Assembly (NCBI GenBank): GCA_026391125.1
Contig: JAPLEO010000110.1
Location: forward strand, 7-64,006
From: Bacteroidota bacterium
GTDB lineage: Bacteria; Bacteroidota; Bacteroidia; Chitinophagales; Chitinophagaceae
Direction of reading: 5' to 3'
DNA length: 64,000 nt
Shown here: positions 42,971 through 64,000 of the stretch, in pieces
How the letters are laid out: every line of letters begins with the position of its first letter
Numbering within the stretch: position 1 is the stretch's first letter
Program-made: the position numbers and the translations under genes
The notes under the pieces: model-generated
Databases searched by the model: none
What the model was told of the DNA's origin: nothing
The model's input: only the letters and a program-made list of their open reading frames with translations

Positions 42971-43019
42971 TCTTATTACTTTCAGTTCAAATTTAGTTAA
43001 AACATTACAATACCTGCTA

Positions 43020-46818: not shown

Positions 46819-47630
46819 GTACCCTGATAAAATATATTTCCACTCAAACTGATGTCAAAAATATCGATCACTACGATGATTCCTTTGTGAACAATATAAT
46901 AGAACAAAGGACTGCTGCATTAAAGTTAAAGGATATAGAAACTTATTCTAACTTTTTGATAAATAGTAAAGCCGAACAGTTGTTTTTTTTTAAAGCACTC
47001 AATAATAATTATAGCGAATTTTATCGTAATCCATTTACTTTTTACAGCATTGAAAACCTTCTATTCCCTGTATTTGTTGGTCAGCTTCTAAATAAGAATA
47101 AAAAAGAAATTAGGGTTTGGAGTGCAGCCAGTTCTGCTGGTCAGGAAGCATATAGTTTAGCGATCCTATTTGAAGAATACCAAATGAAGTGTGCAGATTT
47201 ATTTCCATATAGAATTTTTGCAACTGATAAGTGCTCCGAAGAAATAAATAAGGCAAAGACGGGCATGTATAAAGAAGTAGAATTCCTTCAAATGAGTTTT
47301 TCTAGAATTAAAAAATGGTTTAGTAAAAAAGGAGACAACTATTTTATTGATCCAAATCTGCAGAAGAATATCCATTTTTCAGTTTTCGACCTTTTAAATA
47401 AGTCAACCAATAGCCCTGGTAGTAGTATATATGGTGATTTTGATCTAATTATTTGTGCAAATATCCTCTTCTATTATAAGCCAATGTATCAGATGAGGAT
47501 AATAGAAAAGCTAGTTGCCAATTTATCGAAAGGGGGCTATCTAATTGTTGGTGAAATAGAAAGACATCTGTTGCTTGAAAATAACTATAAAGAAATATAT
47601 CCGCAGTCTGGAATATTTCAACCTAAATAA
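46815..47630 (+). CDS. CheR-type SAM-dependent protein-glutamate methyltransferase homologue
   Basis: SEFYRNP (TEFFRD-like), IRVWSAASSAGQEAYSLAI, ATDKCSEEINKAKTGMY and DLIICANILFYY align with E. coli CheR blocks. The start overlaps the upstream stop (ATGA). Confidence 0.85.
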   Translation: MSTLIKYISTQTDVKNIDHYDDSFVNNIIEQRTAALKLKDIETYSNFLINSKAEQLFFFKALNNNYSEFYRNPFTFYSIENLLFPVFVGQLLNKNKKEIRVWSAASSAGQEAYSLAILFEEYQMKCADLFPYRIFATDKCSEEINKAKTGMYKEVEFLQMSFSRIKKWFSKKGDNYFIDPNLQKNIHFSVFDLLNKSTNSPGSSIYGDFDLIICANILFYYKPMYQMRIIEKLVANLSKGGYLIVGEIERHLLLENNYKEIYPQSGIFQPK

Positions 47631-47637
47631 TAACGAA

Positions 47638-50604
47638 ATGAAAAAACAGACTCTATCAATTTCGGCGCAAATTAAAATTGGTTTTAGCTCAATACTTATT
47701 TTAGTTTTGGGATTACTTTTCTTTTTATTAAGCCAGAATATCACTTTAACAGAACAGACGAAAACAATCTATGGGCATCCCTTGCAGGTTAGGGCTTCTA
47801 TAGCCGAGATACAACAAAGCACATACAGGGAAATGGCAATTCTAAGAGACGCTACACATTTGTATCAACCTGAGGAATATCAATCAATTGTTCATTCCAT
47901 AAATGCCATATCAGATGATGCTGAAAAATCTTTTGAAAATATAAAATCCAACTATTTAGGTAACCCTGCAGATGTTACTAGTGCTCAAGATACATATGAA
48001 CAATGGAGTAATTTGTCCATTCAAATGTTCGATTTAATTACAAATGGTAAATCAAAGGATGCCATTTTAAAAATGAGCCAAAAAGGGGAAGAAGGGAAAA
48101 GCAGAGAATTAGTTTTTGAGAAGCTTGCAATTATTGATGATTTTGCAAAGAGAAAAGCAGATAGTATATATGAAGAAACATTAGTATTAGCTGATAAAAT
48201 GATTCGTGATTCAATACTATTAGCAATTTGTATGCTCACAATTGCCATATTGATTACCTATTATCTAATTAAACAAATATTAACGCCTATTAGAATAATG
48301 GCAAATACAACTGAGCGATTTAAGAATGGTGATTTATCTGCTAGAAATTCTTACAAACAAATGAACGAATTTGGACATTTAGCAGATTCCATCAATCTAT
48401 TTGCTGATAAAATTCAAGCTAGTTCTGAAATGAGCACGAAAGTAATTCAAATTTCAGAACAACTTTTGAGTAAATATGAGGCGAAAGAATTTTTCCATGA
48501 TACCCTAAATACTTTGCTAAGTTTTACGAATTCACAAATGACTGCTGTTTATTTAATAGACAATGAAAAGCAAAACTTCAACCATTTTGATTCTATAGGT
48601 GTGGATGACAACGCTAGAAAATCTTTTTCAGCTATTAACTCTGAGGGTGAATTTGGAGCAGCAATCTCCACAAAAGAGATTCAACATTTAAAAAATATCT
48701 CTGAAAATACAAGATTTCAGTTCTACTCATTTTGTGGAAAGATTATACCCAAAGAAATTATTACTATACCCATTTTGGCCAATAATGAAATAATAGCTAT
48801 CATTTCGCTAGCCAGCATAAATGGATATACCCAAAATGACCTGCAATTAATTAAAAGTATTTATCCAATACTTTGTACACGCATTGAGGGAATCATTGCA
48901 TATCATGCTATTCAAACTTTTTCAGAATCACTTGAATTGCAAAATCAGGAGCTTTCAGTTCAGAAAACAGAACTAGCTGCTCAGTCAAGCGATCTGAGAT
49001 CACAAAATACGATACTTGAAATACAGAAAAATCAATTGAATGAAGTAAGTCGTTTAAAAACAAACTTCTTATCGAATATGAGCCATGAATTACGGACTCC
49101 ACTAAACTCTATCATTGCACTAACAGGATTACTCAGCAGAAAGTTAATTCAAAAAGTTTCTGAGGAGGAATATAGTTATTTAGAAGTGATTGAACGTAAT
49201 GGCAAAAGTTTATTGTATCTAATTAACGATATCCTTGATATAGCCCGGATTGAATCAGGGAAAGAAGAAATTGACATCACGAAGTTTAATCTCAATATTT
49301 TGATTTCTGAGATAGTAACTATGATTCAACCTCAAATATTAACAAAAGCAATTTCGGTACATCAAAAAAATAAGGAAAATGTTTTATTTATTTCAAGCGA
49401 TTCAGATAAACTAAAGCATGTTTTACAAAATTTAATAGGCAACGCAATAAAATTTACTGAAAAAGGGACGATAGAAATTATCTCAGAGAAGGATGGTGAG
49501 AATATTATTATTAAAGTAATTGACACCGGAATTGGCATTCATCAGGATCAGCTTCCACACATATTTGACGAATTCCGACAAGCCGATGGAAGTACTTCAA
49601 GAAAATATGGTGGCACAGGACTTGGCCTTGCAATTGCCAAAAAATATATACAATTACTTGGGGGCAGTATTTCAGTCACAAGTATTCTTGGAACAGGATC
49701 TGAATTTAATATTTCTTTACCTGTAAACTATCAATCTTCCAAAAAAGAACTTGCAATTGAAGGATTTAATGAGTTAAAGTATCCTGTTTTACCTCCAGTT
49801 CCAAACCCTGAACATTCCATAAAAACTATTTTGCTGATAGATGATAGTGAAGCAGCATTATTACAAATGAAATACTTATTAGAAGAATCTGGTTTTCATA
49901 TTTTAGTTGCAGAAAATGGTCAGGCAGCTTTCGATATTTTGGAAAATAATATCCCGGATGTGATTGTATTAGATTTAATGATGCCTGGAATTGATGGATT
50001 TCATGTTTTAAAAAATTTAAGAGCGCAAGTGAAAACGGAAAATATTCCTGTGCTGATTCTAACTGCCAAACTTATATCAAAAGAGGAACTACTATTTTTT
50101 AATAGAAATAATGTCCATCAGTTAATACAAAAGGGAGATGTAAAAAGAAGTGAATTATTAGCGAAAATAAATTTGTTATTATATCCTGCACATACAATCA
50201 TCCCAAAGAATACGACTGACCAATCTACTGCTATAATCAAGCCATTAGTATTAGTGGTGGAAGACAATCCAGACAACCTGCTTACGATAAAGGCATTGCT
50301 TGATGGGAAGTATCAATTAATTGAGGCAACAGATGGAATTGAAGCACTAGAGATAATAAAAAAACAGCTTCCTAATTTGGTATTAATGGACATTGCTTTA
50401 CCTAGGCAAGATGGAATTCAAACCTTTTTGGCAATACAACAAGATGAGCTGTTAAAACATATTCCGGTGATTGCAATAACTGCAAGTGCTATGAATAGCG
50501 ATCGTGAATCAATATTAGCGCATGGTTTTCGTGGTTATATTTCTAAACCTATTGATCATATTCAATTTCACCAAATGATTAAGGAGGTATTATATGGATT
50601 ATAA
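47638..50604 (+). CDS. Hybrid sensor histidine kinase: TM / helical sensor / TM, HAMP, GAF, HisKA, HATPase_c, REC, REC
   Basis: H-box FLSNMSHELRTPLNS, N-box NLIGNAIKFT, G1 DTGIGI, G2 GGTGLGLAI. Two receiver domains (LLIDDSE...LDLMMPGIDG; LVVEDNPDN...MDIALPRQDG). Start at MKKQTLS (47638). Confidence 0.9.
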   Translation: MKKQTLSISAQIKIGFSSILILVLGLLFFLLSQNITLTEQTKTIYGHPLQVRASIAEIQQSTYREMAILRDATHLYQPEEYQSIVHSINAISDDAEKSFENIKSNYLGNPADVTSAQDTYEQWSNLSIQMFDLITNGKSKDAILKMSQKGEEGKSRELVFEKLAIIDDFAKRKADSIYEETLVLADKMIRDSILLAICMLTIAILITYYLIKQILTPIRIMANTTERFKNGDLSARNSYKQMNEFGHLADSINLFADKIQASSEMSTKVIQISEQLLSKYEAKEFFHDTLNTLLSFTNSQMTAVYLIDNEKQNFNHFDSIGVDDNARKSFSAINSEGEFGAAISTKEIQHLKNISENTRFQFYSFCGKIIPKEIITIPILANNEIIAIISLASINGYTQNDLQLIKSIYPILCTRIEGIIAYHAIQTFSESLELQNQELSVQKTELAAQSSDLRSQNTILEIQKNQLNEVSRLKTNFLSNMSHELRTPLNSIIALTGLLSRKLIQKVSEEEYSYLEVIERNGKSLLYLINDILDIARIESGKEEIDITKFNLNILISEIVTMIQPQILTKAISVHQKNKENVLFISSDSDKLKHVLQNLIGNAIKFTEKGTIEIISEKDGENIIIKVIDTGIGIHQDQLPHIFDEFRQADGSTSRKYGGTGLGLAIAKKYIQLLGGSISVTSILGTGSEFNISLPVNYQSSKKELAIEGFNELKYPVLPPVPNPEHSIKTILLIDDSEAALLQMKYLLEESGFHILVAENGQAAFDILENNIPDVIVLDLMMPGIDGFHVLKNLRAQVKTENIPVLILTAKLISKEELLFFNRNNVHQLIQKGDVKRSELLAKINLLLYPAHTIIPKNTTDQSTAIIKPLVLVVEDNPDNLLTIKALLDGKYQLIEATDGIEALEIIKKQLPNLVLMDIALPRQDGIQTFLAIQQDELLKHIPVIAITASAMNSDRESILAHGFRGYISKPIDHIQFHQMIKEVLYGL

Positions 50605-52477
50605 GAATATTAAAATTCTAGCCATTGATGATAATAGGGATAATCTATTTACAATCAAAGCACTGATTAAGGAGACTTTCCCAGAAGCATCTATTGAAAT
50701 GGCAACTGATGGAAATGAAGGATTAGCAATGGCCTATGAACAGGATCCAGATGTAATTCTATTGGATATTCTCATGCCAATTATTGATGGCTTTGAAGTT
50801 TGTAAGCAATTGAAAGAAAATGATTTATCAAAAGATATTCCAGTTATTTTCATCACAGCATTAAAAGGGGACCGTGACAGCAAGGTAAAGGCTTTAGAAG
50901 TTGGAGCCGAGGCATTTTTGGCAAAACCAATTGATGAAATCGAACTGATTGCTCAAATCAGGGCAATGGTAAAGATAAAAAAGAATAATATACAAAAGCG
51001 TACCGAAAAAATTGAACTCTCATTATTGGTTGATGAACAAACTGTTCAGTTGAAGGCTACAAATATGGCGATGCTGAATTTATTAGAAGACCTTAAAGCT
51101 GAAAATGAAGCAAGAAAGAAAAGTGAAGAAATACAACAATTACATTCATCAAGATTAGAATTTGCCATGTATACTGCAAATATGGCTTGGTGGGAAATGG
51201 ACATCTTAAATGGGTTAGTAAAATTTGATAATCGGAAAGCTGAAATGTTGGGATATACACCAGAAAAATTCAATCATTACACAGATTTTACGGCACTGTT
51301 ACATCCAGATGATTTTGAAAAATGTATGAATGCAATGCGTAATCACTTAAATGGTTCTGTTGAAAAATATGAAGTTGACTATAGAATTAAAATAAAGGAT
51401 GGTACTTATAAATGGCTTTTGGATATCGGAACTGTCAATAAAAGAGATGCTGCAGGAGTGCCACTTTATATTACTGGGTTAGTTATTGATATCAATGACA
51501 GTAAAAATGCGGAAGATAAAATAAGGCAAAAAGACATTGAATTTCAAAAGCTCTCAAAAAATATGCCCGACTTTATTTATCAATTCACGCGGCGTGTTGA
51601 TGGAACTTATCATGTCCCCATTGCTACTGCAGGAATTAAAAATGTATTTGGGTTAAATTTAGAGGATGTGATGAATGATTTTTCTCCTATAGCGGAAAGG
51701 ATTCATCCAGATGATATTGCAAATGTTTTTCATAAAATAGAAAATTCTGCCAATAATTTAACAGCATTTCTTTGCGAATACCGTGTTCAAATTCCTAACA
51801 AACCCATCAAATGGTTACTCTCTAAGTCAACTCCAGAAAAATTGCCAGATGGTTCTATTACATGGTACGGCTATGTTGCAGACATTACCGAATCAAAAAA
51901 AGTTGCATTGAAACTACTTCAACTTACACAAGCCATTGAACAAAGTCCGGTTTCCATTTTTATCACTGATCAAAAAGGTAATATCGAATACGTGAATCAA
52001 AAATTCACAAAAATAACTGGCTATGATTTAGAAGAAATCATTGGCAAAAACCCTAGGATCATCAAATCTGGAAATACTTCTCTCAAAATATATGAGCAAT
52101 TATGGGATTCAATATTGGATGGTAAAGAATGGAATGGTGTGCTTCAAAATAAAAAAAAGAATGGTGAATTTTTTTGGGAATCTATTAAAATCTCTTCTAT
52201 TAAAGATAAAAATGGAGTCATCACCAATTTCTTGGCTATTAAAGAAGATATTACAGAACGAAAAATTGTTGATGATAAATTAAAAAAAATTGCCTGGCAA
52301 CAAAGTCATGAAGTTAGAGGTCCGCTATCCTCTATCTTAGGAATTATTTCAGCTATGAACTTTAAAATAACCTTAGAAGAAAAACTGGAACTATTAGGAA
52401 AATTGGATGAAGTTTCAAAGAAGTTAGACAAAGCAATTCATGCAATAGTAAATGAAACTATTCCCAGCAATATTTAA
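50594..52477 (+). CDS. Response regulator: REC, three PAS domains, C-terminal H-box/DHp-like segment, no HATPase_c
   Basis: REC (LAIDDNRDN...LDILMPIIDG...FITALK). PAS/PAC repeats. The protein ends about 60 aa after WQQSHEVRGPLSSILG. The start overlaps the kinase stop by 11 nt. Confidence 0.85.
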   Translation: MDYKNIKILAIDDNRDNLFTIKALIKETFPEASIEMATDGNEGLAMAYEQDPDVILLDILMPIIDGFEVCKQLKENDLSKDIPVIFITALKGDRDSKVKALEVGAEAFLAKPIDEIELIAQIRAMVKIKKNNIQKRTEKIELSLLVDEQTVQLKATNMAMLNLLEDLKAENEARKKSEEIQQLHSSRLEFAMYTANMAWWEMDILNGLVKFDNRKAEMLGYTPEKFNHYTDFTALLHPDDFEKCMNAMRNHLNGSVEKYEVDYRIKIKDGTYKWLLDIGTVNKRDAAGVPLYITGLVIDINDSKNAEDKIRQKDIEFQKLSKNMPDFIYQFTRRVDGTYHVPIATAGIKNVFGLNLEDVMNDFSPIAERIHPDDIANVFHKIENSANNLTAFLCEYRVQIPNKPIKWLLSKSTPEKLPDGSITWYGYVADITESKKVALKLLQLTQAIEQSPVSIFITDQKGNIEYVNQKFTKITGYDLEEIIGKNPRIIKSGNTSLKIYEQLWDSILDGKEWNGVLQNKKKNGEFFWESIKISSIKDKNGVITNFLAIKEDITERKIVDDKLKKIAWQQSHEVRGPLSSILGIISAMNFKITLEEKLELLGKLDEVSKKLDKAIHAIVNETIPSNI

Positions 52478-52512
52478 TAAAACAGTATAGTGAATACTTG
52501 GAAAGTGATTAT

Positions 52513-53973
52513 TTAATGACTATGTCTTATTTTAAGTACGCCTCCTTGAGTTTCTTTTATGGTATGAACAAACATAAAAGCTTGTGGGTCTAATTCATAC
52601 ACGAGGTTTTTTAATTTCCTTAATTCAAGTCTAGTGATTACGGTGAAGATGATGTCACAATCTGAACTAACTTCAAATTTGCCTGGTAAAAAACCTCGTT
52701 CACCTTTATAAACAGTAATACCTCTTCCTAATGTATTTACCAATTGGTATTTGATCATTTCGCTTTTACCTGAAATAATAGTAATACCTGTATATGCCTG
52801 TATGCCCTCAACAACATAATCAATACTCCTTGTTGCAGCAAAATAGGTTAGAATACTGTAAAGAGAAGTAACTATTCCAAACTTAAAAGCAGCAATAGAA
52901 AAGATTACAATATTGATACCCAGAATAATTTCGGTGATAGTAAAAGAAGTTCTTTTCAATGTATAGATTGCAAGAACTTCAATGCCGTCCAAAGCTGCAC
53001 CCACTCTCATTACTAGCCCTACACCAATACCGAGGAATACGCCTCCAAAAATAGAAATGAGTAATTTATCAGAAGTTAAAGCAAACTCTGGTAATAGCCA
53101 TAAAGCAATACCCAGTAGGATAACACTAATTAAAGTTCTAATAGCAAACCTGCGGCCAACAGAAAAATAACTAATCACTACAAAGGGCATATTCATCAAC
53201 ACAATAACTATTGCTAAATTGAAATGATATAATTCATGTATTAGCAGAGAGATGCCGGTAACTCCACCATCAAAAAATTGATTGGGTACTAAAAATCCTT
53301 TTAATGCGACTCCCGCAATAATAACACCTAAAATCATTAATACAGCATCTTGGATCAGTTCTGTTAGATTGGGTTTGGAATGATTAAATTCTGTAACCAC
53401 CAATTTTGATTGCAGCTCCTGTAGATGTTGTTGTTTTTTGGTTTCCCTTTCATTTTGCGCAGTTTTTGTAAAAAAATGATGGGTAGTTAGGAACTCAACT
53501 TGTTTTAATACCCATTCTGTATCTGTTTTTAGTAACCCATTTTTTTGTGATTCTTTAAATAGCTTTTCTGAATACATAAAATATTCTTCACTCCCTAAAT
53601 AAAATAAATCAGCATCGCAAAGTATTTGACTTAAATGATCAATAGGAGACTGTGGCAACTTTGTAGCCATAATCATTCTACAAATGATTTCAATCTGCTC
53701 GGGAGAATAACCATATTCAGGCAAATATTTTTTGGCAATGGTGCAAGAAATTGTCTCATGTTCGGTGTGGTTTTGCAAAAATCCAGAATCATGAAATAAA
53801 GCAGCAGTCTTCAATAAAATGATATCATCACCTCCAATATTTTCAGCCAAAGCCAAATGGTCAGCAGCGGCAATTACATTTTTCGTGTGCTGAGCATTGT
53901 GATAGATAATATAGTTGGGTATACCAGTTTCTAATTTATGTATCAGAAAAGAATAAATTTGTTCAAACTGCAT
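52513..53973 (-). CDS. HD domain fused to a YitT-family membrane protein (with DUF2179-like C-terminus)
   Basis: N-terminal YHNAQHT...LFHDSGF HD motif. About five central TM helices. The C-terminal ITVYKGERGF... pattern is typical of YitT/DUF2179. Confidence 0.75.
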   Translation of the reverse strand: MQFEQIYSFLIHKLETGIPNYIIYHNAQHTKNVIAAADHLALAENIGGDDIILLKTAALFHDSGFLQNHTEHETISCTIAKKYLPEYGYSPEQIEIICRMIMATKLPQSPIDHLSQILCDADLFYLGSEEYFMYSEKLFKESQKNGLLKTDTEWVLKQVEFLTTHHFFTKTAQNERETKKQQHLQELQSKLVVTEFNHSKPNLTELIQDAVLMILGVIIAGVALKGFLVPNQFFDGGVTGISLLIHELYHFNLAIVIVLMNMPFVVISYFSVGRRFAIRTLISVILLGIALWLLPEFALTSDKLLISIFGGVFLGIGVGLVMRVGAALDGIEVLAIYTLKRTSFTITEIILGINIVIFSIAAFKFGIVTSLYSILTYFAATRSIDYVVEGIQAYTGITIISGKSEMIKYQLVNTLGRGITVYKGERGFLPGKFEVSSDCDIIFTVITRLELRKLKNLVYELDPQAFMFVHTIKETQGGVLKIRHSH

Positions 53974-53994
53974 CCTAAAAATTTAAAAGGTATT

Positions 53995-55026
53995 TTAATT
54001 TAATACTTCATACAGTATTACTTCTCCTGTTTTATTTTTTAAACTTACTGTGCCAATACTTTTACAATTAAAAGATTGGTTTACTTTTTTATAACAGGAT
54101 TCTGTAATTAAAATTTGGCTATAGGTAGCAGCAGTTTGTAATCGCTGCGCAGTATTAACAGTGTCTCCTATGACAGTATAGTCTAACCGGCGCAGGGTTG
54201 CTGATCCAATATTGCCTGAGATCATTTCACCACTATTAATACCAATTGAAACCTTGGGGTTAAAACCATATTCAACTGGGAGTACATCGATTTTGTTTTT
54301 GATTGCTAAACAGGCATCAATAGCACGGTCTAAATGATAAGGGCCTTTAAATACCGCCATAATACAATCGCCAATAAATTTATCTACGATCCCATTTTGA
54401 GCAATGATCTCTTTTACCATTAACTCAAAATATTTATTCAACAATTTCACTACAATATCGGGCGTTTCTTTTTCACTAATGGAAGTAAAGCCACAGATAT
54501 CAATAAAAGCAACTGTTGCTTCTAGTGTTTCGTTGTCGGTTAATGATTGTTCATATTCTTTTGAGTTCATGAAATTGAGCACATTAGAATCAACATACAT
54601 TTTGAGGATATTATTTTCTTTGATGGCAAGTAAGGTTTCTTTCAGCTGATTCACATAACTAATCGTTTTTTCAATGGTAAGTTCTAGGTCCTCAAAATTG
54701 ATGGGCTTGGTTACAAAATCAAAAGCACCTCTATTCATGGCAGTTCTGATATTATCCATATCTCCATAAGCAGATACCATTACTGTTTTAGACATTGGAG
54801 AAACCTCATTCAGCTTTCCAAGCAAAGTAAGTCCGTCCATTTCTGGCATATTGATATCAGATAGCACCACATCAATATCATTGTGCAATTGCATTTTTTC
54901 TAAAGCATCTTTCCCATTAATAGCAAACACAAAATCGTATTGTTGTTCTCTGATCTTTTGCCTAAACTTTTGCTTGATCAAAACTTCTAAATCTGTTTCG
55001 TCATCAGCTACCAGAATTTTGGTCAT
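53995..55026 (-). CDS. Response regulator fused to a class III adenylate/guanylate cyclase domain
   Basis: REC (ILVADDETD...LSDINMPEMDG...MVSAYG). Cyclase blocks VAFIDICGFTS, KFIGDCIMAVF, IGINSGEMISGNIGS and YTVIGDTVNTAQRLQ. Confidence 0.9.
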   Translation of the reverse strand: MTKILVADDETDLEVLIKQKFRQKIREQQYDFVFAINGKDALEKMQLHNDIDVVLSDINMPEMDGLTLLGKLNEVSPMSKTVMVSAYGDMDNIRTAMNRGAFDFVTKPINFEDLELTIEKTISYVNQLKETLLAIKENNILKMYVDSNVLNFMNSKEYEQSLTDNETLEATVAFIDICGFTSISEKETPDIVVKLLNKYFELMVKEIIAQNGIVDKFIGDCIMAVFKGPYHLDRAIDACLAIKNKIDVLPVEYGFNPKVSIGINSGEMISGNIGSATLRRLDYTVIGDTVNTAQRLQTAATYSQILITESCYKKVNQSFNCKSIGTVSLKNKTGEVILYEVLN

Positions 55027-55400
55027 AGGAGTCTTGTTTTTAATTTTTCTTTTAAAGAGTTGAAATCAACGGGCTTAGTCAAAAAATCATCCGCTCCAAG
55101 CTTCATCGCTTCCTGAAAATTTGCATCATCGCCATACGCTGTAATCATCATTACAACTGGGGGAGGAGTTGCATACTTTTCCTTGATCTGCTTAAGTAAT
55201 TCCAATCCGCTCATGCCTGGCATATTGATGTCTGATAGAATCAACACGGCTTCATGAAAATTTTTCTTCATATAGTCTAATGCTTCCTCGCCCGAAAAGG
55301 CAAATACAAAATTGATTTCACCTTCCTTGATCTCTTTTCTAAATCTCTGTTGGAAAAGAAATTGCACATCTTTTTCATCATCTACTACAAGTATTTTCAT
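55023..55400 (-). CDS. Single-domain response regulator (CheY-like)
   Basis: ILVVDDEKD...LSDINMPGMSG...MITAYG...DFLTKP. Its stop overlaps the cyclase start (ATGA). Confidence 0.9.
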   Translation of the reverse strand: MKILVVDDEKDVQFLFQQRFRKEIKEGEINFVFAFSGEEALDYMKKNFHEAVLILSDINMPGMSGLELLKQIKEKYATPPPVVMMITAYGDDANFQEAMKLGADDFLTKPVDFNSLKEKLKTRLL

Positions 55401-55407
55401 TGTGGGG

Positions 55408-57750
55408 TTATTTTGGTAAAATGATTATAAATTCGGTTCCTTCACCTTCTTTTGTTTCTACTTTCAATTCTCCACCATGTGCTTTTACAATATCATAACT
55501 CAAACTTAAACCCAGCCCTGTACCTTTTCCGGTAGGTTTGGTTGTAAAAAATGGTTGAAAGATTTTATCAAGATTTTTTTGAGCAATCCCATTACCATTA
55601 TCCTTCACTGAAATGATGATATTATTTGCTGTTTTCTTTGTTGTCAACGAAACTGTAGGATCATAATTAAGGGCCCCTTTTTTCTTTTTTTCATCCACTA
55701 CATAAAAAGCATTTGTAAAAAGGTTCAAGATTACCCTGCCAATATCTTGAGGAACAACATTAATATTTCCAATTGATGGATCCAAATTTGTTTCCATTTT
55801 TGCATTGAATGATTTGTCTTTAGCTCTCAAGCCATGATAGGAGAGACGTAAGTATTCTTCGGCCAATACATTGATATCTGTAGGTTCTTTCACTCCAGAG
55901 CTGCTTCGGCTATGTTGTAGCATCCCTTTTACGATTCCGTCTGCACGTTTGCCGTGGTGATTGATTTTATCCTCATTATCGATTACATCTTTTGCAATCT
56001 TTTTTACTTCTACATAATTACCCTTATCAATTTCTTCGTTTAATTCTGTTAATAGCTCTTGGTTGATTTCTGAAAAATTATTAATAAAATTTAATGGGTT
56101 CTGGATCTCATGGGCAATGCCTGCGGTAAGTTCTCCGAGTGAAGCCATTTTTTCGGATTGAATCAATTGTTTTTGAGTGGTTTTTAATTCACCCAAAGTT
56201 GTTTCCAGTTCCTTTTTTTGTTTTTGCAATAAACTATATGCTTTTTGTTTGTGCTGATTATTTCTATATAAGAGAAACACAACAACTAGTATTCCTGTAA
56301 TGATCGAGATCAAACCATACATTCTTACCCGATTATCATAATCTTGCTTAGCTTCTTTACTTTGTTGTTCTAATTGCTGGCGTCGGGAGGATTCATTAAA
56401 AGTAAGTGTTTGAAACTGACGGATCTTATCGGTATTATATAGGCTGTCTTTTAATGTAACAGAAAGCTGTAAGTATTTATAGGCACTATCTAGTTGGTGA
56501 TTTGATTTATATAGATCAGCAATGATTGGGCTGATTTCTGCTATAAAATAGTTTGAATTTTCGCCCCATGATTGTACTGTTTTTTTCTTTGTTTGATAAA
56601 AAGTTAAAGCCATTTTTGCATAATATAAAGCGGAGTCTATTTGACCATCGTTTTGAAATGTCTTAGCCATTCCAAAATGAGTTTTTGTTAACCAATAGTC
56701 ATTCGGATGTGCAAGAGATAATCTATAGAATTTTAAAGCTGTTTTATTATCTCCTTTTGCTGAATAGCAGTCTGCAAGTATTTGATGGCAAGAGGCTAAA
56801 TATGCTTGTTCAAAAGCAAATCCTTTTAAGTTTATTAATTGATTTGCATAAATCAATGCAGAATCAGGTAAATGCAAGTTTAAAAATGCATTTATAATGA
56901 TATTGTTTACTCTCCACCTATTCAAAGAATAACTTGGATCATTTGGGTTCAATGTGTGAAAAATAGAATCAGCAAATTTTCCATATACAAGTTCATGCTG
57001 ATAATCTTTCATTGCTCTATAATCGAAAGCGATGTTATTTATAGCCTGTATTAGTAAAGATTTATCAGATGCTTTCTCTGCTATTTTTAAGTTTTCGAAT
57101 CTCAGTTCCAAAGATTTTGGATAATTACCTAGGGAATGCATCAAAGTAGCTACCACTTCCTTAAGACTCAGAAATTGATATATCGATCTTGAATCATTAT
57201 TTGATAATTGTTTATCAGTAGCGTTTATACGTTGCTGTAATTGAAGTGCAGTTTGTGCATAATATAAAGCGGAATCCGCATTATAATATTCAGTAAAAAA
57301 TGCGTAAGAATAAGCAATCGTTGCTAATACTTTTAATCGATTACTATCCTCTTTTGCTTTATTTAAAGCATACCATTTATCAAGGAACATCTGATCTCGC
57401 CATCTTTCTACACTATCGGTAATTGTAGTGTCTTTTTTTATAGAAATGATTCGATCCGGAACTTCATCACCATCATCTTGTTTTTCAACACTAAGCCAAC
57501 TGCCTCTGTGAAATTTGTATTTAATGGGGCCAGCTTTTAAATTCAAAGTGATGGACTTTGAATGATCACCAGTTGCATGCATCAAATAATTATTATTAGC
57601 AGTAGAATCCCAATTAGCAAAATTGCCGGTAATGAATATACTATCGTGTTGTATGACTGTCTTCTCTTTTAATAAGAAAGTCACTTTGATTTGGGCATGC
57701 AAATTCATTGCCAAGAACACAGAAATAATCAGACCAAAAATACTTTTCAT
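55408..57750 (-). CDS. Sensor histidine kinase: signal peptide, CBM48/AMPK-GBD-like module, TPR repeats, TM, HisKA, HATPase_c (array member 1, intact)
   Basis: IFITGNFANWD...IKYKFHRGSW module. H-box GIAHEIQNPLNF, N-box NLFTNAFY, G1 DNGNGI, G2 GTGLGL. Confidence 0.9.
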   Translation of the reverse strand: MKSIFGLIISVFLAMNLHAQIKVTFLLKEKTVIQHDSIFITGNFANWDSTANNNYLMHATGDHSKSITLNLKAGPIKYKFHRGSWLSVEKQDDGDEVPDRIISIKKDTTITDSVERWRDQMFLDKWYALNKAKEDSNRLKVLATIAYSYAFFTEYYNADSALYYAQTALQLQQRINATDKQLSNNDSRSIYQFLSLKEVVATLMHSLGNYPKSLELRFENLKIAEKASDKSLLIQAINNIAFDYRAMKDYQHELVYGKFADSIFHTLNPNDPSYSLNRWRVNNIIINAFLNLHLPDSALIYANQLINLKGFAFEQAYLASCHQILADCYSAKGDNKTALKFYRLSLAHPNDYWLTKTHFGMAKTFQNDGQIDSALYYAKMALTFYQTKKKTVQSWGENSNYFIAEISPIIADLYKSNHQLDSAYKYLQLSVTLKDSLYNTDKIRQFQTLTFNESSRRQQLEQQSKEAKQDYDNRVRMYGLISIITGILVVVFLLYRNNQHKQKAYSLLQKQKKELETTLGELKTTQKQLIQSEKMASLGELTAGIAHEIQNPLNFINNFSEINQELLTELNEEIDKGNYVEVKKIAKDVIDNEDKINHHGKRADGIVKGMLQHSRSSSGVKEPTDINVLAEEYLRLSYHGLRAKDKSFNAKMETNLDPSIGNINVVPQDIGRVILNLFTNAFYVVDEKKKKGALNYDPTVSLTTKKTANNIIISVKDNGNGIAQKNLDKIFQPFFTTKPTGKGTGLGLSLSYDIVKAHGGELKVETKEGEGTEFIIILPK

Positions 57751-57788
57751 GAAACCATTTTAAAATTCGTTCATTATCAAAACCTTTC

Positions 57789-59955
57789 TTAAACTATAGG
57801 AATCTCTATAATAAATTCTGTCCCTTCCCCTTCTTTCGTTTCCACTTTCAATTCCCCACCATGTGCTTTTACAATATCATAGCTTAAACTCAATCCCAAG
57901 CCAGTTCCCTGTCCTGTTGGTTTGGTTGTAAAGAAGGGCTGGAAAATTTTATCCATTATGTTTTTAGGGATTCCATTTCCATTGTCCTTAATGGAAATTA
58001 ATATATTTTTTTCTGTTTTTTGGGTTTTCACATTAATCGTAGGCTCATAATTGGCTGGCTCATAGAATAACACGACCTATATCCTGTGAAATGATATTGA
58101 CCTTTCCAATACTTTCATCAAAATCAGTTTTCATTTTGGCATTAAAAGATTTGTCTTTGGCGCGAAGTCCATGATAGGCGAGGCGCAGGTATTCATCAGC
58201 CAATGCATTGATATCAGTTGGTTCTTTTTGTCCACTACTGCTGCGGCTATGTTGGAGCATTCCTCGCACAATGTCGCCGGCGCGTTTGCCGTGGTGGTTA
58301 ATTTTTTGTTCATTTTCTTTAATTTCATTTGAAATGGCAATAGCTTCTTCCGTATTTCCGGTTTTTAGTTCCTGTTGTAATTCATCTATTAATTCTGTGT
58401 TTACTTCTGAAAAATTATTGACGAAGTTTAGTGGGTTTTGAATTTCATGGGCAATACCTGCTGTGAGTTCTCCTAGCGATGCCATCTTCTCTGATTGGAT
58501 CAATTGCGCTTGGGCTGCTTTTAAACTGTCTAAGGAATTTTGTAGTTCTCTGGTGCGCTCTGCAACTTCTTTTTCCAATCTTTCATTTTGTTGAGAGATT
58601 AATAAAATTTTCTCTGCTTCTTTTTCCTTTTCCATTCTTTCTTTATCAATGATCTCTTCGGTTAATTTTTCTTGGATGGATTGATAGCGTTTAAATAATA
58701 ACCAGGAAAAAAATAATATTAGCCATAACAACATAAGTAAAGTAATTAAAGAACTCCAGTTGTTGATCCATTGAATAAATGAAGGTTGCTTGACTTTATA
58801 ATATTTATCAAGCATGCCATAATAAAATTGTACGCTAAGTACCGGACCAAAATAGAAAAAGAATGGAACTGTTGCCAGTAACCTATTATTAATTTTCACT
58901 TTTTTATTGAGCAGCACTAAAAAAATAGTAAGAAATAAAAAGTCTAAAAAAAGATAAACAAAAACTATTACTGAGTCGCCAATTCTGTCATACAAAAATT
59001 GTTTAATTGGAATGAAGGTTATCCATGCTAATACAATCCATACTAATACAATAAAGTAATTATAGAATTTTAAAAATTTGTCCCACTTGGGTAAATATAT
59101 TTGGGTTCTAAAAAAATACCTGACAAATAGCATTAACGAAAAAAACCAACAAATAAGGGTCAGATAATTTACAATTAACAATGTTATAGTAAAAGAATAC
59201 CCAAAAAGCAAATCCGAATATTGGAAAAAAGAATTGAGTCCGAAGGAAATCAAGAATAATGAAAAATATAGGTATTCTTTTTCTTTAGTTGCACGATAAA
59301 AGGTAATATTAATAAAAAAGGCAAGGATGATGATACCTATTAAAATTGCATTAACAATATTGTCAAAATCGGATGTATAGGTAAGTTTATTTTTAATATC
59401 CCGACTTTTCTGTAAGTAAGCCGGCATCACATTAAAAGTGAGTTTATTGGGTATTAAACCACGAAGAGTATTATGCAGTCTTGTATAAATAGTGATCTCC
59501 TGAAAAGGTTGCAGTGTAAGGGTTGCAATAAATAACATCTTATAACCATCTCTTTTGGATTTATGATATGACCATCCAGTTTTTAAATGTTGCCATTGCA
59601 AAGTTGAATCAGCAAAATAGATATCAGTTTCCATTGCCTCTGCAGGGATGCCCATTTCCACAGTTTTATTCAGGGTATTCTTTATCCGTACATGATACCA
59701 AAATGTTTTTACAGTAAAATCAGATTGCTTAGTAGTATCAAACTGCCTGAATCTATTTGCAAATGCCGGATTTGAAACTATTTTAAAATCGGTGGTACCC
59801 AAACTATCATCCCAGACCCGCCAGAATTTTCTTTCTACTTTAAATTCAGCAACTGTATCAGTTGTAATTAAAAAAGTTTCGGGCAAAACATTTTGCGCAA
59901 CTGAGCACAAGGGCAGAAAAGAAAAACAAATTATTTTTATCAGATTCTTCATCAT
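57789..59955 (-). pseudogene. 7TMR-DISM-type sensor histidine kinase, interrupted (array member 2)
   Basis: Body ORF 58060-59955 has a 7TMR-DISMED2-like ectodomain, 7 TM helices and H-box GIAHEIQNPLNF, and stops after DIGRVIL. Tail ORF 57789-58073 carries the G1/F/G2 boxes and is in the +1 frame. The N-box codons present in intact paralogues are absent. Confidence 0.8.
57922..58062. repeat. 141-bp block identical to 60096-60236 (kinase tail cassette, copy A)
   Basis: Base-by-base comparison shows 141/141 identity. The adjacent 81 bp (57841-57921 vs 60015-60095) differ at 8 positions. Identity ends exactly at the interruption point. Confidence 0.95.
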
Positions 59956-59965
59956 AGCAGTTTTA

Positions 59966-61886
59966 TTAAATAGGTAATATGATTAGAAATGTTGTGCCTT
60001 CACTTTCTTTTGTCTCCACTTTCAACTCCCCACCATGTGCTTTTACAATATCATAGCTTAAACTCAATCCTAAACCGGTACCTTGTCCAGTTGGCTTGGT
60101 TGTAAAGAAGGGCTGGAAAATTTTATCCATTATGTTTTTAGGGATTCCATTTCCATTGTCCTTAATGGAAATTAATATATTTTTTTCTGTTTTTTGGGTT
60201 TTCACATTAATCGTAGGCTCATAATTGGCTGGCTCACTGTGGTATGATATTTACCAATCCAATAGACGGATCAAAATTTGTATGCATGGTCGCATTGAAT
60301 AATTTGTCTTTAGCTCTTAATCCATGATAGGAGAGGCGTAAGTATTCATCAGCCAGTTTGTTGATATCGGTAGGTTCTTTCACTCCGTTGCTACTTCTTG
60401 AATGTTGTAGCATCCCTTTTACAATCGCATCGGCACGTTTGCCGTGGTGATTGATTTTTTCTTCGTTATCAATAACATCTTTTGCAATCGCTTTTACTTC
60501 CTGATAATTGCCTCGATTAATTTCATCATTTAATTCATTCAATAATTCCTTATTCACTTCCGAAAAATTATTGACGAAATTTAATGGGTTCTGGATCTCA
60601 TGAGCAATACCAGCGGTAAGCTCCCCAAGGCTTGCCATCTTTTCGGATTGGATGAGTTGGGACTGTGTGGATGTAAGTTCAGAAAGCGTTTTTTCAGCGA
60701 AAACCTTTTGCCTGTTTATCTCTTCTTTTTGATAATGCAATAAGGCATTGGCCTTTTGTTTCTGCTTGTTATTTCGGTAAAGAAATGACGCAATCAAAAG
60801 GAACACCACTAACCCAGCCAGCATCACATACTGCTTTAAACGATTTTGATAGGCAGCCTGTGTCATATCTAATTCGTATTGCCGTTCCTCTTCATCAAAA
60901 ACTGCAAGGTTTTGCATACTATTCAGATTTCCAAAACTGTTCTGTTTTTGTATTGCCTCCAGGGCCATTTTCTGGTATTTAAGGGCAAGTGACAAGTTGC
61001 TTTTTTCATACATTGTAGACAAAAAAATACTGACTGTTGCAATGGAATTGCCAATGTTGCTTTTTTGTGCGTCGGCAAGAGCTTTTTGTGCATAATAGAT
61101 ACAAGAATCAATTTGCCCTGCCTGTTGATAGATCTCCGCAATTTCAAGGTTTGATTTAAATGTAAAAATATATTGACCGCTTGAATAGCCAGCCAACAGG
61201 CTTTGTCGAAAATAACTGAGCGCAAGCGGTACATTTCCTTTTTTTAATTGGAGCCTGGCAAGTGTTATAAAATTGGTACTACTCATAGATTCCGACCCAT
61301 AGCGCTTGATATGATTATCTGCCATCAGGCAATAATACAAGGCAGAGTCTGTTTGATTCATTAAATAATATGCCCTTCCGATTTGTACTTCTGACGTTAC
61401 CGCCTTGTAATAATTATGCAATGAGTCGAAGAGCTGCTTTGACTTTTTATGATAAAACACTGCCCGGGCGATATCGTCTGTTTGTCTGTATATTACCCCA
61501 AGCCTGTTATATACTTCCCCCCGGCCTATCGTAAAATTGTATTTCTCCGAAATCCGTAAGGCCTTCAACTCCAATTCCAGCGCCCGAGAGTGATTGCTAG
61601 CCAGGGAAAGTGCAAACCCCATCATCAAAAGGGATCTAAATTCCCCTTCGTGAAATTTTATTTTCCGAGATAGTATCAAAGCTTGCTGGGCGTAGAATAA
61701 AGCAGAGTCAGCGTTAGTGTACTTATATTGGTTAACCAGTTCCACCATCGACAGAACATTACTGGTATCGATCTTGCTTATGGAAAGCTCCTGTTTCAAG
61801 CTGTCGATGATGGCTTGCTGATTGCTCTGTGCAAAGCACGGCTGTGATAAAGACCCAATAAGGAACAGACTTATCAACTTTTTCAT
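59966..61886 (-). pseudogene. TPR-type sensor histidine kinase, interrupted (array member 3)
   Basis: Body ORF 60234-61886 has a signal peptide, TPR repeats, a TM helix and an H-box, and stops after GLVNIIPQ. Tail ORF 59966-60205 carries the G1/F/G2 boxes and is in the +1 frame. The GRVIL-N-box segment is absent. Confidence 0.8.
60096..60236. repeat. 141-bp block identical to 57922-58062 (kinase tail cassette, copy B)
   Basis: See copy A. Confidence 0.95.
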
Positions 61887-63853
61887 TATACAATGGATTT
61901 AAAGGGTAATTGAATAATAAATTCACTTCCTTCGTTTTCTTTTGTTTCCACTTTCAATTCCCCACCATGCGCTTTAATAATATCATAACTTAAACTCAAA
62001 CCTAACCCTGTTCCCTGGCCTGTTGGCTTGGTAGTGAAGAAGGGTTGGAAGATCTTATCTAAAACTTTCTGTGGTATTCCATTTCCATTATCCGCAACGG
62101 AGATCTGTATTTTCCCCGCAGAATTTTTGGTGGCGACGGTAACTGTTGGCTCATAACCCTCACCAACCATTTTTTTCTTCTCTGCAACAGCATAAAAAGA
62201 ATTGGTGATCAGGTTAAGGATTACTCTTCCAATTTCCTGCGGAATCAGATCGATCTTACCGATCGACGCATCAAATTTTGTGACCAATGTTGCATTGAAA
62301 TCTTTATCCTTGGCCCGCAAACCATGATAAGCTAACCGTAAATACTCATCAGCCAAAGCGTTGATATCAGTAGGTTCTTTTTGTCCGTTGCTGCTGCGGC
62401 TGTGTTGTAGCATGCCTTTAACAATGGCATCGGCGCGTTTGCCATGGTGGTTTATTTTTTGTTCATTGTCTTTGATGTCGTTTGAAATGGCTGTTGCTTC
62501 TTCGGTGTTGCCGGTTTTTAATTCCTTTTGTAATTCATCGATCAATTCGGTGTTCACTTCCGAAAAATTATTGACGAAGTTTAATGGGTTTTGAATTTCA
62601 TGAGCAATGCCTGCTGTAAGCTCACCCAAACTTGCCATTTTTTCGGATTGGATGAGTTGCGATTGGGTGGATTTTAGATTTGTCAACGTTGCTTCTAAAA
62701 TTTTATTGGCATTTTGCTTTTGTCTGTTATTAAAGTAAAGAATAGAAGCCACAATCAAAAATATTCCAAGCCCCCCCAGTAAAATGAATTGCTTCTGCCT
62801 GTTTTGACTTTCAATACGTTCTGCCTCTAGAGTTTTCTGTCGTTCCTGTTCATCCAAAATAATCCTCTGCAATTCAAGGAACCTTTTTATTCCTGTCAGA
62901 TTATCCTTTTCTTGATTGGCTATGGATAAATATTTATAAGCACTGTCGTTCTGGTTCCTTTTTTTATATAAATCGCTTATAAGGACAGAAGCATCATAAA
63001 CGCCTTTTCTGAACGTAACGGCATTTCCGGTTTGCAATGCATTATAAGCATACTTCAAACTAGAGTCAGGCATGTTGAGATCATTATACAATTTTGCCAG
63101 AAATAAGGTATTCGCAGTGAGGTTACGTAAATCATTATCGATATTAGCCTCGATGATTCCCTGTTTATAATAATGCATTGCCTTTTCTTTATCTCCTTTC
63201 AATTTATAGGCATTGCCCATTCTAAACATCATTTCAGGCCAGGTTACAAAATTTCTATTATTATATCTTAATTTACTTGCCTTATACACCTGTTGCTGAT
63301 AATATAAAGCAGAGTCTGGCAGATTCATTAATTCATAGATATTCCCAATATTCGAAATTTCGTTATAAATCAATGCTGAGTCACTCAACACTTCAAACAG
63401 TTCTTTGGACCTGAAATAATATTCATTCGCCTTCTTATAATCTGCCAATTCCATATACGTATTTCCAATGCGGTTAAAAGCCATGGCTATCGTAGCGGTA
63501 TCTTTTAATTTTTGAGCAATATCCAGTGCTTCAAATTGAAACTGAAGCGACTCCGGCAACCTTCCACTTTCCAAAACTGTTGCACCTTTTAATGATAACA
63601 TACCTGCACGCACAAGAGGCAATTGCAATTTAACTGCATAATCAAGAGCCAGGTCAGTATAATAAAGCGAAGAATCTACATTAGAAAACCGAAGGCCTGA
63701 TGCTAATTGCATTGAAAGATTTAATCTTATTGAATCATTGATTTCCGCATACAACTGCCTTTTAAATTTGGAAATATCTTCATTCGATATTTGTGCGAAA
63801 GAGGAAAAGGTTAAACATCCAAATAGAGTAATTGCCAACAATAATTTTTTCAT
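61886..63853 (-). CDS. Sensor histidine kinase: signal peptide, TPR repeats, TM, HisKA, HATPase_c (array member 4, intact)
   Basis: H-box GIAHEIQNPLNF, N-box NLITNSFYAV, G1 DNGNGI, G2 GTGLGL. Its stop overlaps the start of member 3 (TAATG). Confidence 0.9.
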   Translation of the reverse strand: MKKLLLAITLFGCLTFSSFAQISNEDISKFKRQLYAEINDSIRLNLSMQLASGLRFSNVDSSLYYTDLALDYAVKLQLPLVRAGMLSLKGATVLESGRLPESLQFQFEALDIAQKLKDTATIAMAFNRIGNTYMELADYKKANEYYFRSKELFEVLSDSALIYNEISNIGNIYELMNLPDSALYYQQQVYKASKLRYNNRNFVTWPEMMFRMGNAYKLKGDKEKAMHYYKQGIIEANIDNDLRNLTANTLFLAKLYNDLNMPDSSLKYAYNALQTGNAVTFRKGVYDASVLISDLYKKRNQNDSAYKYLSIANQEKDNLTGIKRFLELQRIILDEQERQKTLEAERIESQNRQKQFILLGGLGIFLIVASILYFNNRQKQNANKILEATLTNLKSTQSQLIQSEKMASLGELTAGIAHEIQNPLNFVNNFSEVNTELIDELQKELKTGNTEEATAISNDIKDNEQKINHHGKRADAIVKGMLQHSRSSNGQKEPTDINALADEYLRLAYHGLRAKDKDFNATLVTKFDASIGKIDLIPQEIGRVILNLITNSFYAVAEKKKMVGEGYEPTVTVATKNSAGKIQISVADNGNGIPQKVLDKIFQPFFTTKPTGQGTGLGLSLSYDIIKAHGGELKVETKENEGSEFIIQLPFKSIV

Positions 63854-63861
63854 GCTTTTGT

Positions 63862-64000
63862 TTATAATGGTAATACTATCTTAAATGATGTGCCCACTCC
63901 TTCTTTGGTCTCTACTTTCAATTCCCCCCCATGCGCCTTCACAATATCATAACTCAAACTCAAGCCTAACCCTGTTCCCTGGCCGGTGGGTTTAGTAGTG
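63862..64000 (-). CDS. C-terminal end of a fifth paralogous histidine kinase (partial, runs off the window)
   Basis: Manual translation of the minus strand gives [44 protein letters not shown]-stop. This matches the tails of the other array members. Confidence 0.75.

Follow-up and report, generated by a model that had tools for sequence, protein, structure and literature searches.

A conserved gene array of tandem sensor kinases, two receivers and a predicted adenylate cyclase in Bacteroidota

A stretch of 64,000 nucleotides (nt) from a Bacteroidota bacterium of the Chitinophagaceae (JAPLEO010000110.1, positions 7-64,006), termed here the window, carries on its minus strand, between 52513 and 64000, an array of eight co-directional genes. 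In order, these encode a kinase cut by the edge of the window, four further kinases (K1, K2, K3 and K4), a stand-alone receiver (REC), a receiver fused to a nucleotidyl cyclase (REC-cyclase) and a membrane protein that begins with an HD domain (HD-YitT-DUF2179, or HD-YitT). The reading that we favour, with moderate confidence, is that of a multi-kinase two-component operon in which many sensors would converge on two receivers to control the synthesis of a cyclic nucleotide, most probably cyclic AMP (cAMP).

The kinase-receiver-cyclase array

The genes of the window were defined by a listing of open reading frames (ORFs) together with a Pfam domain scan, and the transmembrane (TM) segments by hydrophobicity (Table 1). 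An earlier note, made from the letters alone, had described five co-directional, tightly spaced kinases followed by a REC, a REC-cyclase and an HD-YitT protein, and this description is confirmed by the ORFs, the Pfam domains and the coordinates of the junctions: the gaps between the genes range from -4 to 38 nt. A terminator scan revealed no terminator-like site between the array genes on the minus strand, and the counts of sigma-70 promoters and of terminators were not above those of shuffled sequences, in a scan that does not cover the promoters of Bacteroidota. The same note had remarked on the absence of a DNA-binding response regulator, which is borne out by the Pfam scan, where none of the eight products has a DNA-binding domain. 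NCBIfam has no specific family for any of the array proteins, which match only its generic kinase and receiver models, and an exact-sequence look-up of K1 in public assemblies returned no record. The source contig, of 64,050 nt, ends 50 nt past the window, inside the kinase repeat family, and the fragment of the edge kinase is 89% identical to the C-terminus of K4.

Table 1. The genes of the array in the window, with the distance from each gene to the next
Gene	Coordinates	Strand	Features	Gap to next gene
Edge kinase	63862-64000	-	C-terminal 45 codons and stop; G2-box region of HATPase_c; remainder beyond contig end (frame translation)	8 nt
K1	61886-63853	-	Intact, 655 amino acids; signal peptide, extracytoplasmic TPR, one TM (about 353-371), HisKA, HATPase_c	-1 nt (TAATG; K1 stop overlaps K2 start)
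K2	59966-61886 (ORF 60234-61886, 550 amino acids)	-	TPR, TM, HisKA; ORF ends before N-box; HATPase tail 59966-60236 in another frame	10 nt (from tail stop, 59966)
K3	57789-59955 (ORF 58060-59955, 631 amino acids)	-	7TMR-DISMED2, 7TM, HisKA; HATPase tail ORF of 94 amino acids (57789-58073) in another frame	38 nt (from tail)
K4	55408-57750	-	Intact, 780 amino acids; signal peptide, possible CBM-like beta domain, TPR, one TM (474-492), HisKA, HATPase_c; adjoins receivers	7 nt
REC	55023-55400	-	Stand-alone receiver, 125 amino acids; Pfam Response_reg E 4e-26	-4 nt (ATGA; REC stop overlaps cyclase start)
REC-cyclase	53995-55026	-	343 amino acids; REC (Response_reg E 7e-23), helical linker, class IIIb nucleotidyl cyclase (Pfam Guanylate_cyc)	21 nt
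HD-YitT-DUF2179	52513-53973	-	486 amino acids; HD phosphohydrolase domain (1-193), five-TM YitT_membrane, DUF2179 (Pfam)	

The sensors of the kinases differ. By hydrophobicity, K1 and K4 have a signal peptide or anchor followed by a single later TM segment; in K2, only the later TM segment passes the threshold used, and the N-terminus also resembles a signal peptide. The TPR regions are therefore predicted to face the periplasm. The 7TMR-DISM features of K3 are present, with matches to PF07696 (E 2e-8) and PF07695 (E 2e-8) that both lie above the cut-offs. In K4, where a sensor of the "CBM-like plus TPR" type had been proposed, the TPR part stands and the CBM label is doubtful, as the N-terminus gives only a sub-threshold Pfam match to AMPK1_CBM (E 0.003; 18 bits, for a cut-off of 26.8 bits) and a search of PDB sequences gave no match to it.

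The transmitters, by comparison, are very similar. The H-box AHEIQNPL occurs in K1 to K4, and the kinase motif that had been reported as common to the array is present in all four readable kinases. On the kinases of the window, the Pfam HisKA model scores 25-26 bits, just below its cut-off of 26.9 bits, and NCBIfam kinase models of the AtoS/ZraS type span the whole transmitter at E 1e-48; HATPase_c is nearly full length in K1 and K4 (E 3e-23 and 4e-24), which gives them a complete ATP-binding domain. Over 138 compared residues, the four readable cores share 74-88% protein identity, while their sensor regions reach, at best, 23-29%.

The two receivers are 46% identical to one another, and an unusual insertion after helix 1 is common to both. 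Each is complete in its phosphorylation residues, namely D7, D8, D57, T87 and K109 in the stand-alone REC and D8, D9, D57, S85 and K107 in the receiver of the REC-cyclase. In the catalytic domain of the latter, the metal-binding residues D176 and D220, the substrate pair K216/T284 and the transition-state residues N291 and R295 are all invariant in the 119 closest homologues. Among solved structures, the cyclase domain is closest to that of Pseudomonas aeruginosa CyaB (3r5g) and next to photoactivated adenylate cyclases, with E-values of 1e-24 to 1e-22. Its FIDICGFT, KFIGD and DYTVIGDTVNTAQR motifs align to CyaB, with K216 and T284 (in DYT) matching the KFVGD and DYT of that protein. The earlier note had held out a lack of key catalytic residues as an argument against a working cyclase; on alignment to a solved adenylate cyclase, all of them are present, and the cyclase prediction stands.

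In class III cyclases, a Lys/Thr pair confers specificity for adenine (ATP) and a Glu/Cys pair specificity for guanine. All of the 57 matches of the cyclase among PDB sequences are adenylate or guanylate cyclases, and none is a pyrimidine cyclase. The product of the cyclase is likely to be cAMP, as judged from these residues and matches. The alignment to the photoactivated cyclases begins at residue 123, in the helical linker, and thus the receiver would be joined to the catalytic domain by a helical handle like the one that transmits the signal in those enzymes. A mobile-element origin of the REC-cyclase was considered and rejected: no close homologue was found in phage records, and the only relatives of this kind that were listed are distant (39%) and come from rhizobial megaplasmids.

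The plus strand of the window carries a second signalling cluster (45889-52477), which runs convergently towards the end of the HD-YitT gene and comprises a PAS protein, a CheR methyltransferase, a kinase of 1009 amino acids (HAMP-GAF-HisKA-HATPase) with two receivers and, as its last gene, a protein with a REC and three PAS domains that ends in an H-box-like SHEVRGPL and has no ATPase domain; its coding regions overlap at 46815-46818, 47575-47630 and 50594-50604. Between the signalling clusters and the gene for a LuxE-like acyl-protein synthetase (42912-44000) is a gene on the minus strand (44448-45293) for a BRO-N protein of 281 amino acids (E 1e-11), a domain that is common in phage and mobile-element proteins. 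The G+C content is 0.32-0.35 across both signalling clusters (46001-59999), as against 0.35-0.40 in most of the window, and is again 0.38 in K1 and K2.

Recurrence across Bacteroidota and the slot after the cyclase

When the REC-cyclase was used as the query of a protein search, thousands of matches were obtained, of which the best 120 were examined; almost all of these are exactly 343 amino acids long, with about 78-100% identity, and among their sources are Chitinophagaceae, Ferruginibacter and Emticicia. A subsequent scan, with one genome for each species, yielded at least 574 confirmed loci, of which 80 were kept, with flanks of 10 kb where the contig allowed. These 80 loci are distributed over the Chitinophagales, Cytophagales, Flavobacteriales, Sphingobacteriales and Bacteroidales. 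Their cyclases are 63-80% identical to that of the window, across classes, with an identity that falls roughly with taxonomic distance, as would suit a core gene passed on by vertical inheritance but not a defence gene that is mobile.

When the domains of the window were mapped onto these loci, the order kinase core(s)-REC-REC-cyclase was found on one strand in nearly every locus with upstream sequence, and the stand-alone REC was found upstream of the cyclase in 79 of the 80 (52-84% identity). In a strict count, 42 of the 46 loci with full flanks have one to five kinases with this core on the same strand within 10 kb (none in 4 loci, one in 11, two in 14, three in 13, four in 2 and five in 2), and at least two of the four loci with a count of zero carry a more divergent kinase (41-48% identity) that falls below the threshold. 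Among cultured bacteria with the operon, Flavisolibacter nicotianae (L034) has five kinases and an HD gene, Mucilaginibacter sp. SP1R1 (L077) has one kinase and Seonamhaeicola aphaedonensis (L051) has a PycTM-like gene. The unit recurs in co-directional form in the 80 loci, most of them with 1 to 5 or more kinases. From what these genomes have in common, the array appears to be an ancient, conserved unit of the Bacteroidota in which the number of kinases varies from one genome to another.

Three of the loci in Chitinophagales contain, a few kb downstream and on the opposite strand, a second and distantly related set of a kinase, two receivers and a cyclase (L016:12949-16240 (-), L043:16280-19513 (-) and L060:11018-14267 (-)), with a layout like that of the convergent hybrid-kinase cluster of the window, which has no cyclase. 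In a locus from the Cyclobacteriaceae, the region about 2 kb downstream of the REC-cyclase contains a gene for a BLUF blue-light sensor protein (L013:13531-13971 (-); E 2e-29), and a similar protein occurs in a second locus.

The age of the shared core can be judged from its divergence. Between the core paralogues of the window, synonymous divergence (dS) is saturated (1.1-1.8 or not computable), and the ratio of nonsynonymous to synonymous divergence (dN/dS) is 0.06-0.11. Only 39 of 107 kinases have their closest relative among the paralogues of their own locus, and cores resemble those of other genomes (mean best match 76%) about as much as they resemble paralogues in their own (75%). In view of the saturated dS and of this count, recent duplication and concerted evolution were rejected for the cores, with the exception of an identical stretch of 141 nt in the tails of K2 and K3 (see below). 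As far as these sequences tell, the shared core is an old transmitter module under strong purifying selection and not the outcome of recent duplication or ongoing homogenisation.

The sensors attached to this module are diverse: in 96 kinases, Pfam recognised TPR in 33, a Reg_prop beta-propeller with Y_Y_Y in 15, 7TMR-DISM in 5 and HAMP in 3, and nothing in the others. Despite these unrelated sensors, an alignment of 133 cores shows a conservation of at least 95% for the first DHp helix, for the beginning of the second helix (INHHGKRAxxIVKGML) and for the column of the H-box histidine. In two-component systems, the partner is chosen by residues that immediately follow the histidine which accepts the phosphoryl group and by residues at the base of the second DHp helix. 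Because these partner-determining residues are near-invariant, all the kinases would be expected to address the same receivers, and this is the strongest argument available for convergence. Moreover, the combination of a sensor that varies freely (TPR, 7TMR-DISM, propeller/YYY, HAMP) with a near-frozen transmitter could be used to study how many inputs act on a single pair of receivers.

Another possibility is that only K4, which adjoins the receivers, is their partner, and that the upstream kinases are tandem relatives which signal elsewhere, in which case the array would have arisen by duplication and would not form a converging network. One kinase does seem to suffice in the 11 of 46 full-flank loci where no more than one is adjacent, often with a length of only about 450 amino acids, and neither the number of kinases nor the type of sensor is conserved between genomes. 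However, the specificity helices of the DHp domain are at least 95% conserved in the 133 kinases regardless of position in the array, gaps of -1 to 38 nt and overlapping stop and start codons point to co-expression, and, in the window, the Pfam scan found no other response regulator within the array and no kinase with this core was found elsewhere in the 64 kb. We regard a partnership restricted to K4 as unlikely.

The slot after the cyclase has four recurrent occupants. HD-YitT-DUF2179, which is the only large recurrent family in a clustering of the downstream genes of all loci, lies directly downstream in 12 loci by BLAST (Pfam YitT is found in 16 downstream neighbours), and HD alone in 4 loci. 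A member of the PycTM family follows the cyclase on the same strand, after 19-131 nt, in 8-9 loci, all of them from Flavobacteriales except that of Membranihabitans (L064). Finally, a Cap15-like protein with two TM segments abuts the stop of the cyclase on the opposite strand in two Chitinophaga-like genomes (L009:11417-12046 (-) and L016:11420-12049 (-)). An HD gene is present in 27 of the 80 loci and directly downstream of the cyclase in 16; in 8 of the 80 there is too little downstream sequence to judge. It occurs as HD-YitT, as YitT-HD, as HD alone, upstream, or on the opposite strand, and these varied positions and both domain orders argue for a functional link to the cyclase and against chance adjacency. 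The recurrent neighbourhood thus suggests that HD-YitT is tied functionally to the cyclase.

In the window protein, the membrane part is clearly recognised (YitT_membrane E 5e-54 and DUF2179 E 8e-13 in Pfam, with five hydrophobic segments at residues 202-360), as is the HD domain (Pfam HD E 1e-7), in which H25, H29, H61, D62, H72, E73, D120 and D122 are invariant in 53 sequences. The pattern of this family is YHNxxH, FHDxGF, HE and DADL, and its members in Bacteroidota are mostly stand-alone proteins of about 193 amino acids. A PDB sequence search gave the HD domain no significant match to solved structures. Its AlphaFold model is all helical (pLDDT 97), and Foldseek matches this model at a TM-score of 0.55-0.71 both to small HD hydrolases (Bacillus subtilis YpgQ and 2pq7) and to class I cyclic-nucleotide phosphodiesterases, with a similar fit to the two groups (for PDE4, PDE5 and PDE9, TM-score 0.55-0.68 with an E of 0.0026 or above). 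The metal-binding residues are intact, and the most likely role of the protein, though a speculative one, is that of a cyclic-nucleotide hydrolase tethered to a membrane module. Its likeness to the small HD phosphohydrolases and to the class I phosphodiesterases lies in the all-helical HD fold and in the H...HD...D metal ligands; it differs from both in a conserved pattern of its own and in its fusion to the YitT/DUF2179 membrane module.

The other occupants of the slot raise the question of whether the array resembles a Pycsar or CBASS system, in which case the product of the cyclase, perhaps not cAMP, would act directly on a membrane effector (HD-YitT here, PycTM-like or Cap15-like proteins elsewhere) as a switch for permeability, dormancy or defence. 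PycTM of Pycsar is described as an effector that impairs the membrane on binding cyclic CMP (PMC12489823). The PycTM-like proteins that follow the cyclase in the Flavobacteriales-type loci are full length (Pfam PF18967 at E down to 8e-25; the PADLOC PycTM model over its full length at E 1.6e-28), and the Cap15-like neighbours match both Pfam Cap15_CD_rec (E 2e-10) and the PADLOC model of a 2TM effector (E 2e-25). The cyclase domain itself matches the PADLOC PycC models (E 7e-21), but with 73 bits it scores below the generic Pfam cyclase (90 bits), its Lys/Thr substrate pair is that of adenylate cyclases, and its 57 PDB matches are all adenylate or guanylate cyclases. Moreover, no PycTM or Cap15 homologue was found in the window, HD-YitT matches no PADLOC model, and the identity of the cyclase across classes has the vertical pattern described above. 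We therefore consider a Pycsar-like or CBASS-like mode of action improbable. The PycTM-like genes (L028:2491-3054 (+), L051:11434-11991 (+), L054, L056, L059, L062, L064 and L066) are stable across several genera, which is unusual for a defence gene.

A related and equally doubtful idea is that the operon, inherited vertically throughout the phylum, is akin to the cyclic-nucleotide signalling of defence systems. Its envelope sensor kinases would then gate a receiver-fused cyclase whose nucleotide acts directly on an interchangeable membrane effector, namely HD-YitT in Chitinophagales, a PycTM-like protein in Flavobacteriales and a Cap15-like protein in some others. If this were true, the operon would be a housekeeping counterpart, an ancestor or a domesticated form of Pycsar/CBASS-type effectors under two-component control, and it would provide the first functional context for the uncharacterised YitT/DUF2179 family.

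The apparent breaks in K2 and K3

As read in the window, K2 and K3 have lost the region around the N-box and have a shifted frame. The apparent gap of 278 nt after K2 is not intergenic but codes for the HATPase tail of K2 in another frame, and K3 has the same pattern. The earlier note had taken both kinases to be broken and had seen in this a sign that the array is evolving rapidly. Relative to public contigs, 68 nt encoding DIGRVILNLITNAFYVVDEKKKN are absent from K2 at 60236/60237 and 47 nt encoding NLITNAFYVVDEKKK(N) are absent from K3 at 58062/58063, and the two deletions have a common right edge, TGAGCCAGCCAATTATGAGCC. From the edge of the deletion onwards, the tails of K2 and K3 are identical over 141 nt (57922-58062 and 60096-60236), with 90% identity overall, and in the remaining core of the two kinases most synonymous sites differ. 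The 141-nt identity suggests that gene conversion has acted locally on the neighbouring kinases or that the two copies were mixed in the assembly.

An independent check was made with Logan contigs from four freshwater metagenome runs, which hold 66-94% of the sampled 31-mers of the region. In none of these runs does a contig join the sequence of the window across 58063 or across 60236/60237; instead, the contigs stop there and continue with letters that are absent from the window. At K3, the contig ends at 58063 read, once reverse-complemented, VIL-NLITNAFYVV, and a contig from one run, X4, bridges the site and contains a further 47 nt, by which the frame is restored. At K2, a contig of 2,295 nt (depth 28.8) reads on into DIGRVILNLI; by the same logic, the addition of 68 nt restores the frame of K2, and the true gap between K2 and K3 is then 10 nt. 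The unitig of the shared tail, which is preceded by FYVVDEKKKN, has a depth of 56, or about twice the single-copy depth of 29-36.

The breaks in K2 and K3 are therefore most likely artefacts of assembly, that is, two collapses at a two-copy repeat, and both kinases are intact in the population, although a rare deleted allele may have been present in the original sample. The claim that two kinases are broken is not supported, as the N-box is intact in contigs from this population and none of them bears out the junctions. Nor is the claim of rapid evolution supported, since the breaks are absent from independent contigs and the cores are, to all appearances, ancient paralogues under strong purifying selection.

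That the array is nevertheless decaying, with K2 and K3 as true pseudogenes in a rapidly evolving and partly dead cluster of paralogues, is very improbable: the window does lack the N-box and the reading frame in both genes, and fragmentary pieces of kinase core in 12 of the 69 metagenome-assembled loci could be real scars of recombination, but contigs of single-copy depth carry the intact N-box, the X4 contig restores the frame of K3, no contig spans the junctions of the window, the right edge is common to both deletions and coincides with the beginning of a two-copy repeat, as is typical of an assembly error, the retained parts of the kinases have a dN/dS of 0.06-0.11, and fragments occur in none of the 11 isolate genomes, a difference that is not significant (Fisher p = 0.2).

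The stray pieces of kinase core (for example, L012:4171-4326, L016:5011-5091, L019:2563-2676 and 6086-6169, and L026:5976-6149) are often the last 30-60 codons of the core and, in several loci, follow an intact kinase at a short distance. Unequal recombination between tandem cores could have left them as scars, or they could be further errors of assembly. Near-identical transmitter modules can give rise to assembly errors that mimic pseudogenes, which calls for caution in the annotation of such arrays in metagenome-assembled genomes.

A proposed pathway and its relation to known systems

In the pathway that we propose, the input would come from membrane kinases with different extracytoplasmic sensors and one conserved transmitter, made up of the DHp and catalytic domains. 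All the kinases would phosphorylate Asp57 of both of the paralogous receivers encoded downstream. If the enzyme behaves as others of its family, phosphorylation of the fused receiver would alter the geometry of the cyclase dimer via the helical linker and so switch on the synthesis of cAMP, as in CyaC. The stand-alone REC might compete for phosphoryl groups as a sink or might serve as a connector, and in either role it would set the gain and the rate of shut-off. More speculatively, HD-YitT-DUF2179 could hydrolyse the cyclic nucleotide at the membrane or couple the nucleotide to the YitT module. The earlier note had pictured many sensors with one DHp domain, two receivers and a cyclic-nucleotide output; apart from rapid evolution, this picture is indirectly upheld by the recurrence of the unit, by a DHp conservation of at least 95% and by the intact state of both the paralogous receivers and the cyclase.

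Several observations weigh against this pathway. The convergence of the kinases rests on the conservation of sequence, and in view of the 11 of 46 full-flank loci with a single adjacent kinase, the extra kinases could have other partners. On the output side, the likeness of the HD domain to cyclic-nucleotide phosphodiesterases is weak, with a Foldseek E of 5e-4 or worse and scores for small generic HD hydrolases that are no lower than those for PDE4, PDE5 and PDE9, and the Pfam PDEase_I model is sub-threshold and appears in only 5 of the 53 members of the HD family (best E 0.0024). In 45 of the 80 loci, there is no HD gene within the flanks. No gene for a Crp-like protein that binds cyclic nucleotides was found in the window, with an approximate sequence of Escherichia coli CRP as the probe, which makes for a weak test. 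Finally, the PycTM-like and Cap15-like neighbours in other genomes leave room for a different output.

The activation of class IIIb cyclases by phosphorylation of a REC has been established for CyaC of Spirulina platensis and Anabaena (PMC3009899). As in the cyanobacterial CyaC, the activity of which is controlled by phosphotransfer from a histidine kinase (PMC3009899), the receiver of the window protein is N-terminal to a class IIIb catalytic domain that has the Lys/Thr pair and all the catalytic residues. However, CyaC unites its cyclase with a kinase, GAF domains and a further receiver in a single polypeptide, whereas the cyclase of the window is a minimal REC-cyclase of 343 amino acids, the kinases are separate membrane proteins, several to an operon, and a paralogous stand-alone receiver is inserted between the kinases and the cyclase.

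The output of cAMP by P. aeruginosa CyaB is governed via the Pil-Chp system, with its two single-domain receivers, PilG and PilH. CyaB, which has the closest solved catalytic domain (E 1e-24), differs from the window protein in its MASE2 membrane domain, in the lack of a fused receiver and in that receivers control it only indirectly; in the array, the receiver is fused and classical kinases take the place of the chemosensory CheA. The REC-adenylate cyclases of rhizobia (on megaplasmids of Rhizobium and Sinorhizobium), annotated as adenylate cyclase/signal receiver, have the same two-domain architecture as the window protein over 99% of its length, at 39% identity, and we know of none that follows an array of kinases. 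The Pycsar systems (PycC with PycTM or PycTIR) resemble the array in having a cyclase of the class III fold beside a small membrane effector, and a PycTM member is indeed the next gene in the Flavobacteriales relatives; unlike them, the window has HD-YitT and not PycTM, and its cyclase has a receiver, has residues of the adenylate type and is vertically conserved.

Networks in which several kinases act on a common target include KinA-E and Spo0F in B. subtilis, LuxN/LuxQ/CqsS and LuxU in Vibrio, and the GacS network in P. aeruginosa. In such networks, the kinases are usually scattered over the genome, their transmitters have diverged and the output is transcription, whereas the kinases of the array lie in tandem in one operon, number from 1 to 5 or more per genome and have a near-invariant transmitter, and the predicted output is a nucleotide cyclase. 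The parts are therefore known (HisKA kinases, receivers, a class IIIb cyclase, an HD hydrolase and YitT), and the convergence of several sensor kinases on one receiver is likewise a known concept that has been reviewed (PMC5812489, PMC8175716).

What we have not found described is a conserved operon that combines a variable number of tandem kinases with a frozen transmitter, a paralogous pair of receivers, a minimal REC-adenylate cyclase and an interchangeable slot for a membrane protein. Literature searches returned no study of this operon and nothing specific on a REC-cyclase pathway in Bacteroidota, on YitT/DUF2179, on a REC-linked Pycsar or on "HD-CE". To our knowledge, cAMP signalling in Bacteroidota is poorly studied, and a cyclase that is conserved across classes together with a receiver and a set of kinases of its own points to an uncharacterised core pathway in these bacteria. 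The interest of the array stems less from the window itself than from its conservation across the phylum and from the slot occupied by PycTM, Cap15 or HD-YitT proteins, these neighbours leading to testable ideas both for the YitT/DUF2179 family and for roles other than defence of families known as anti-phage effectors.

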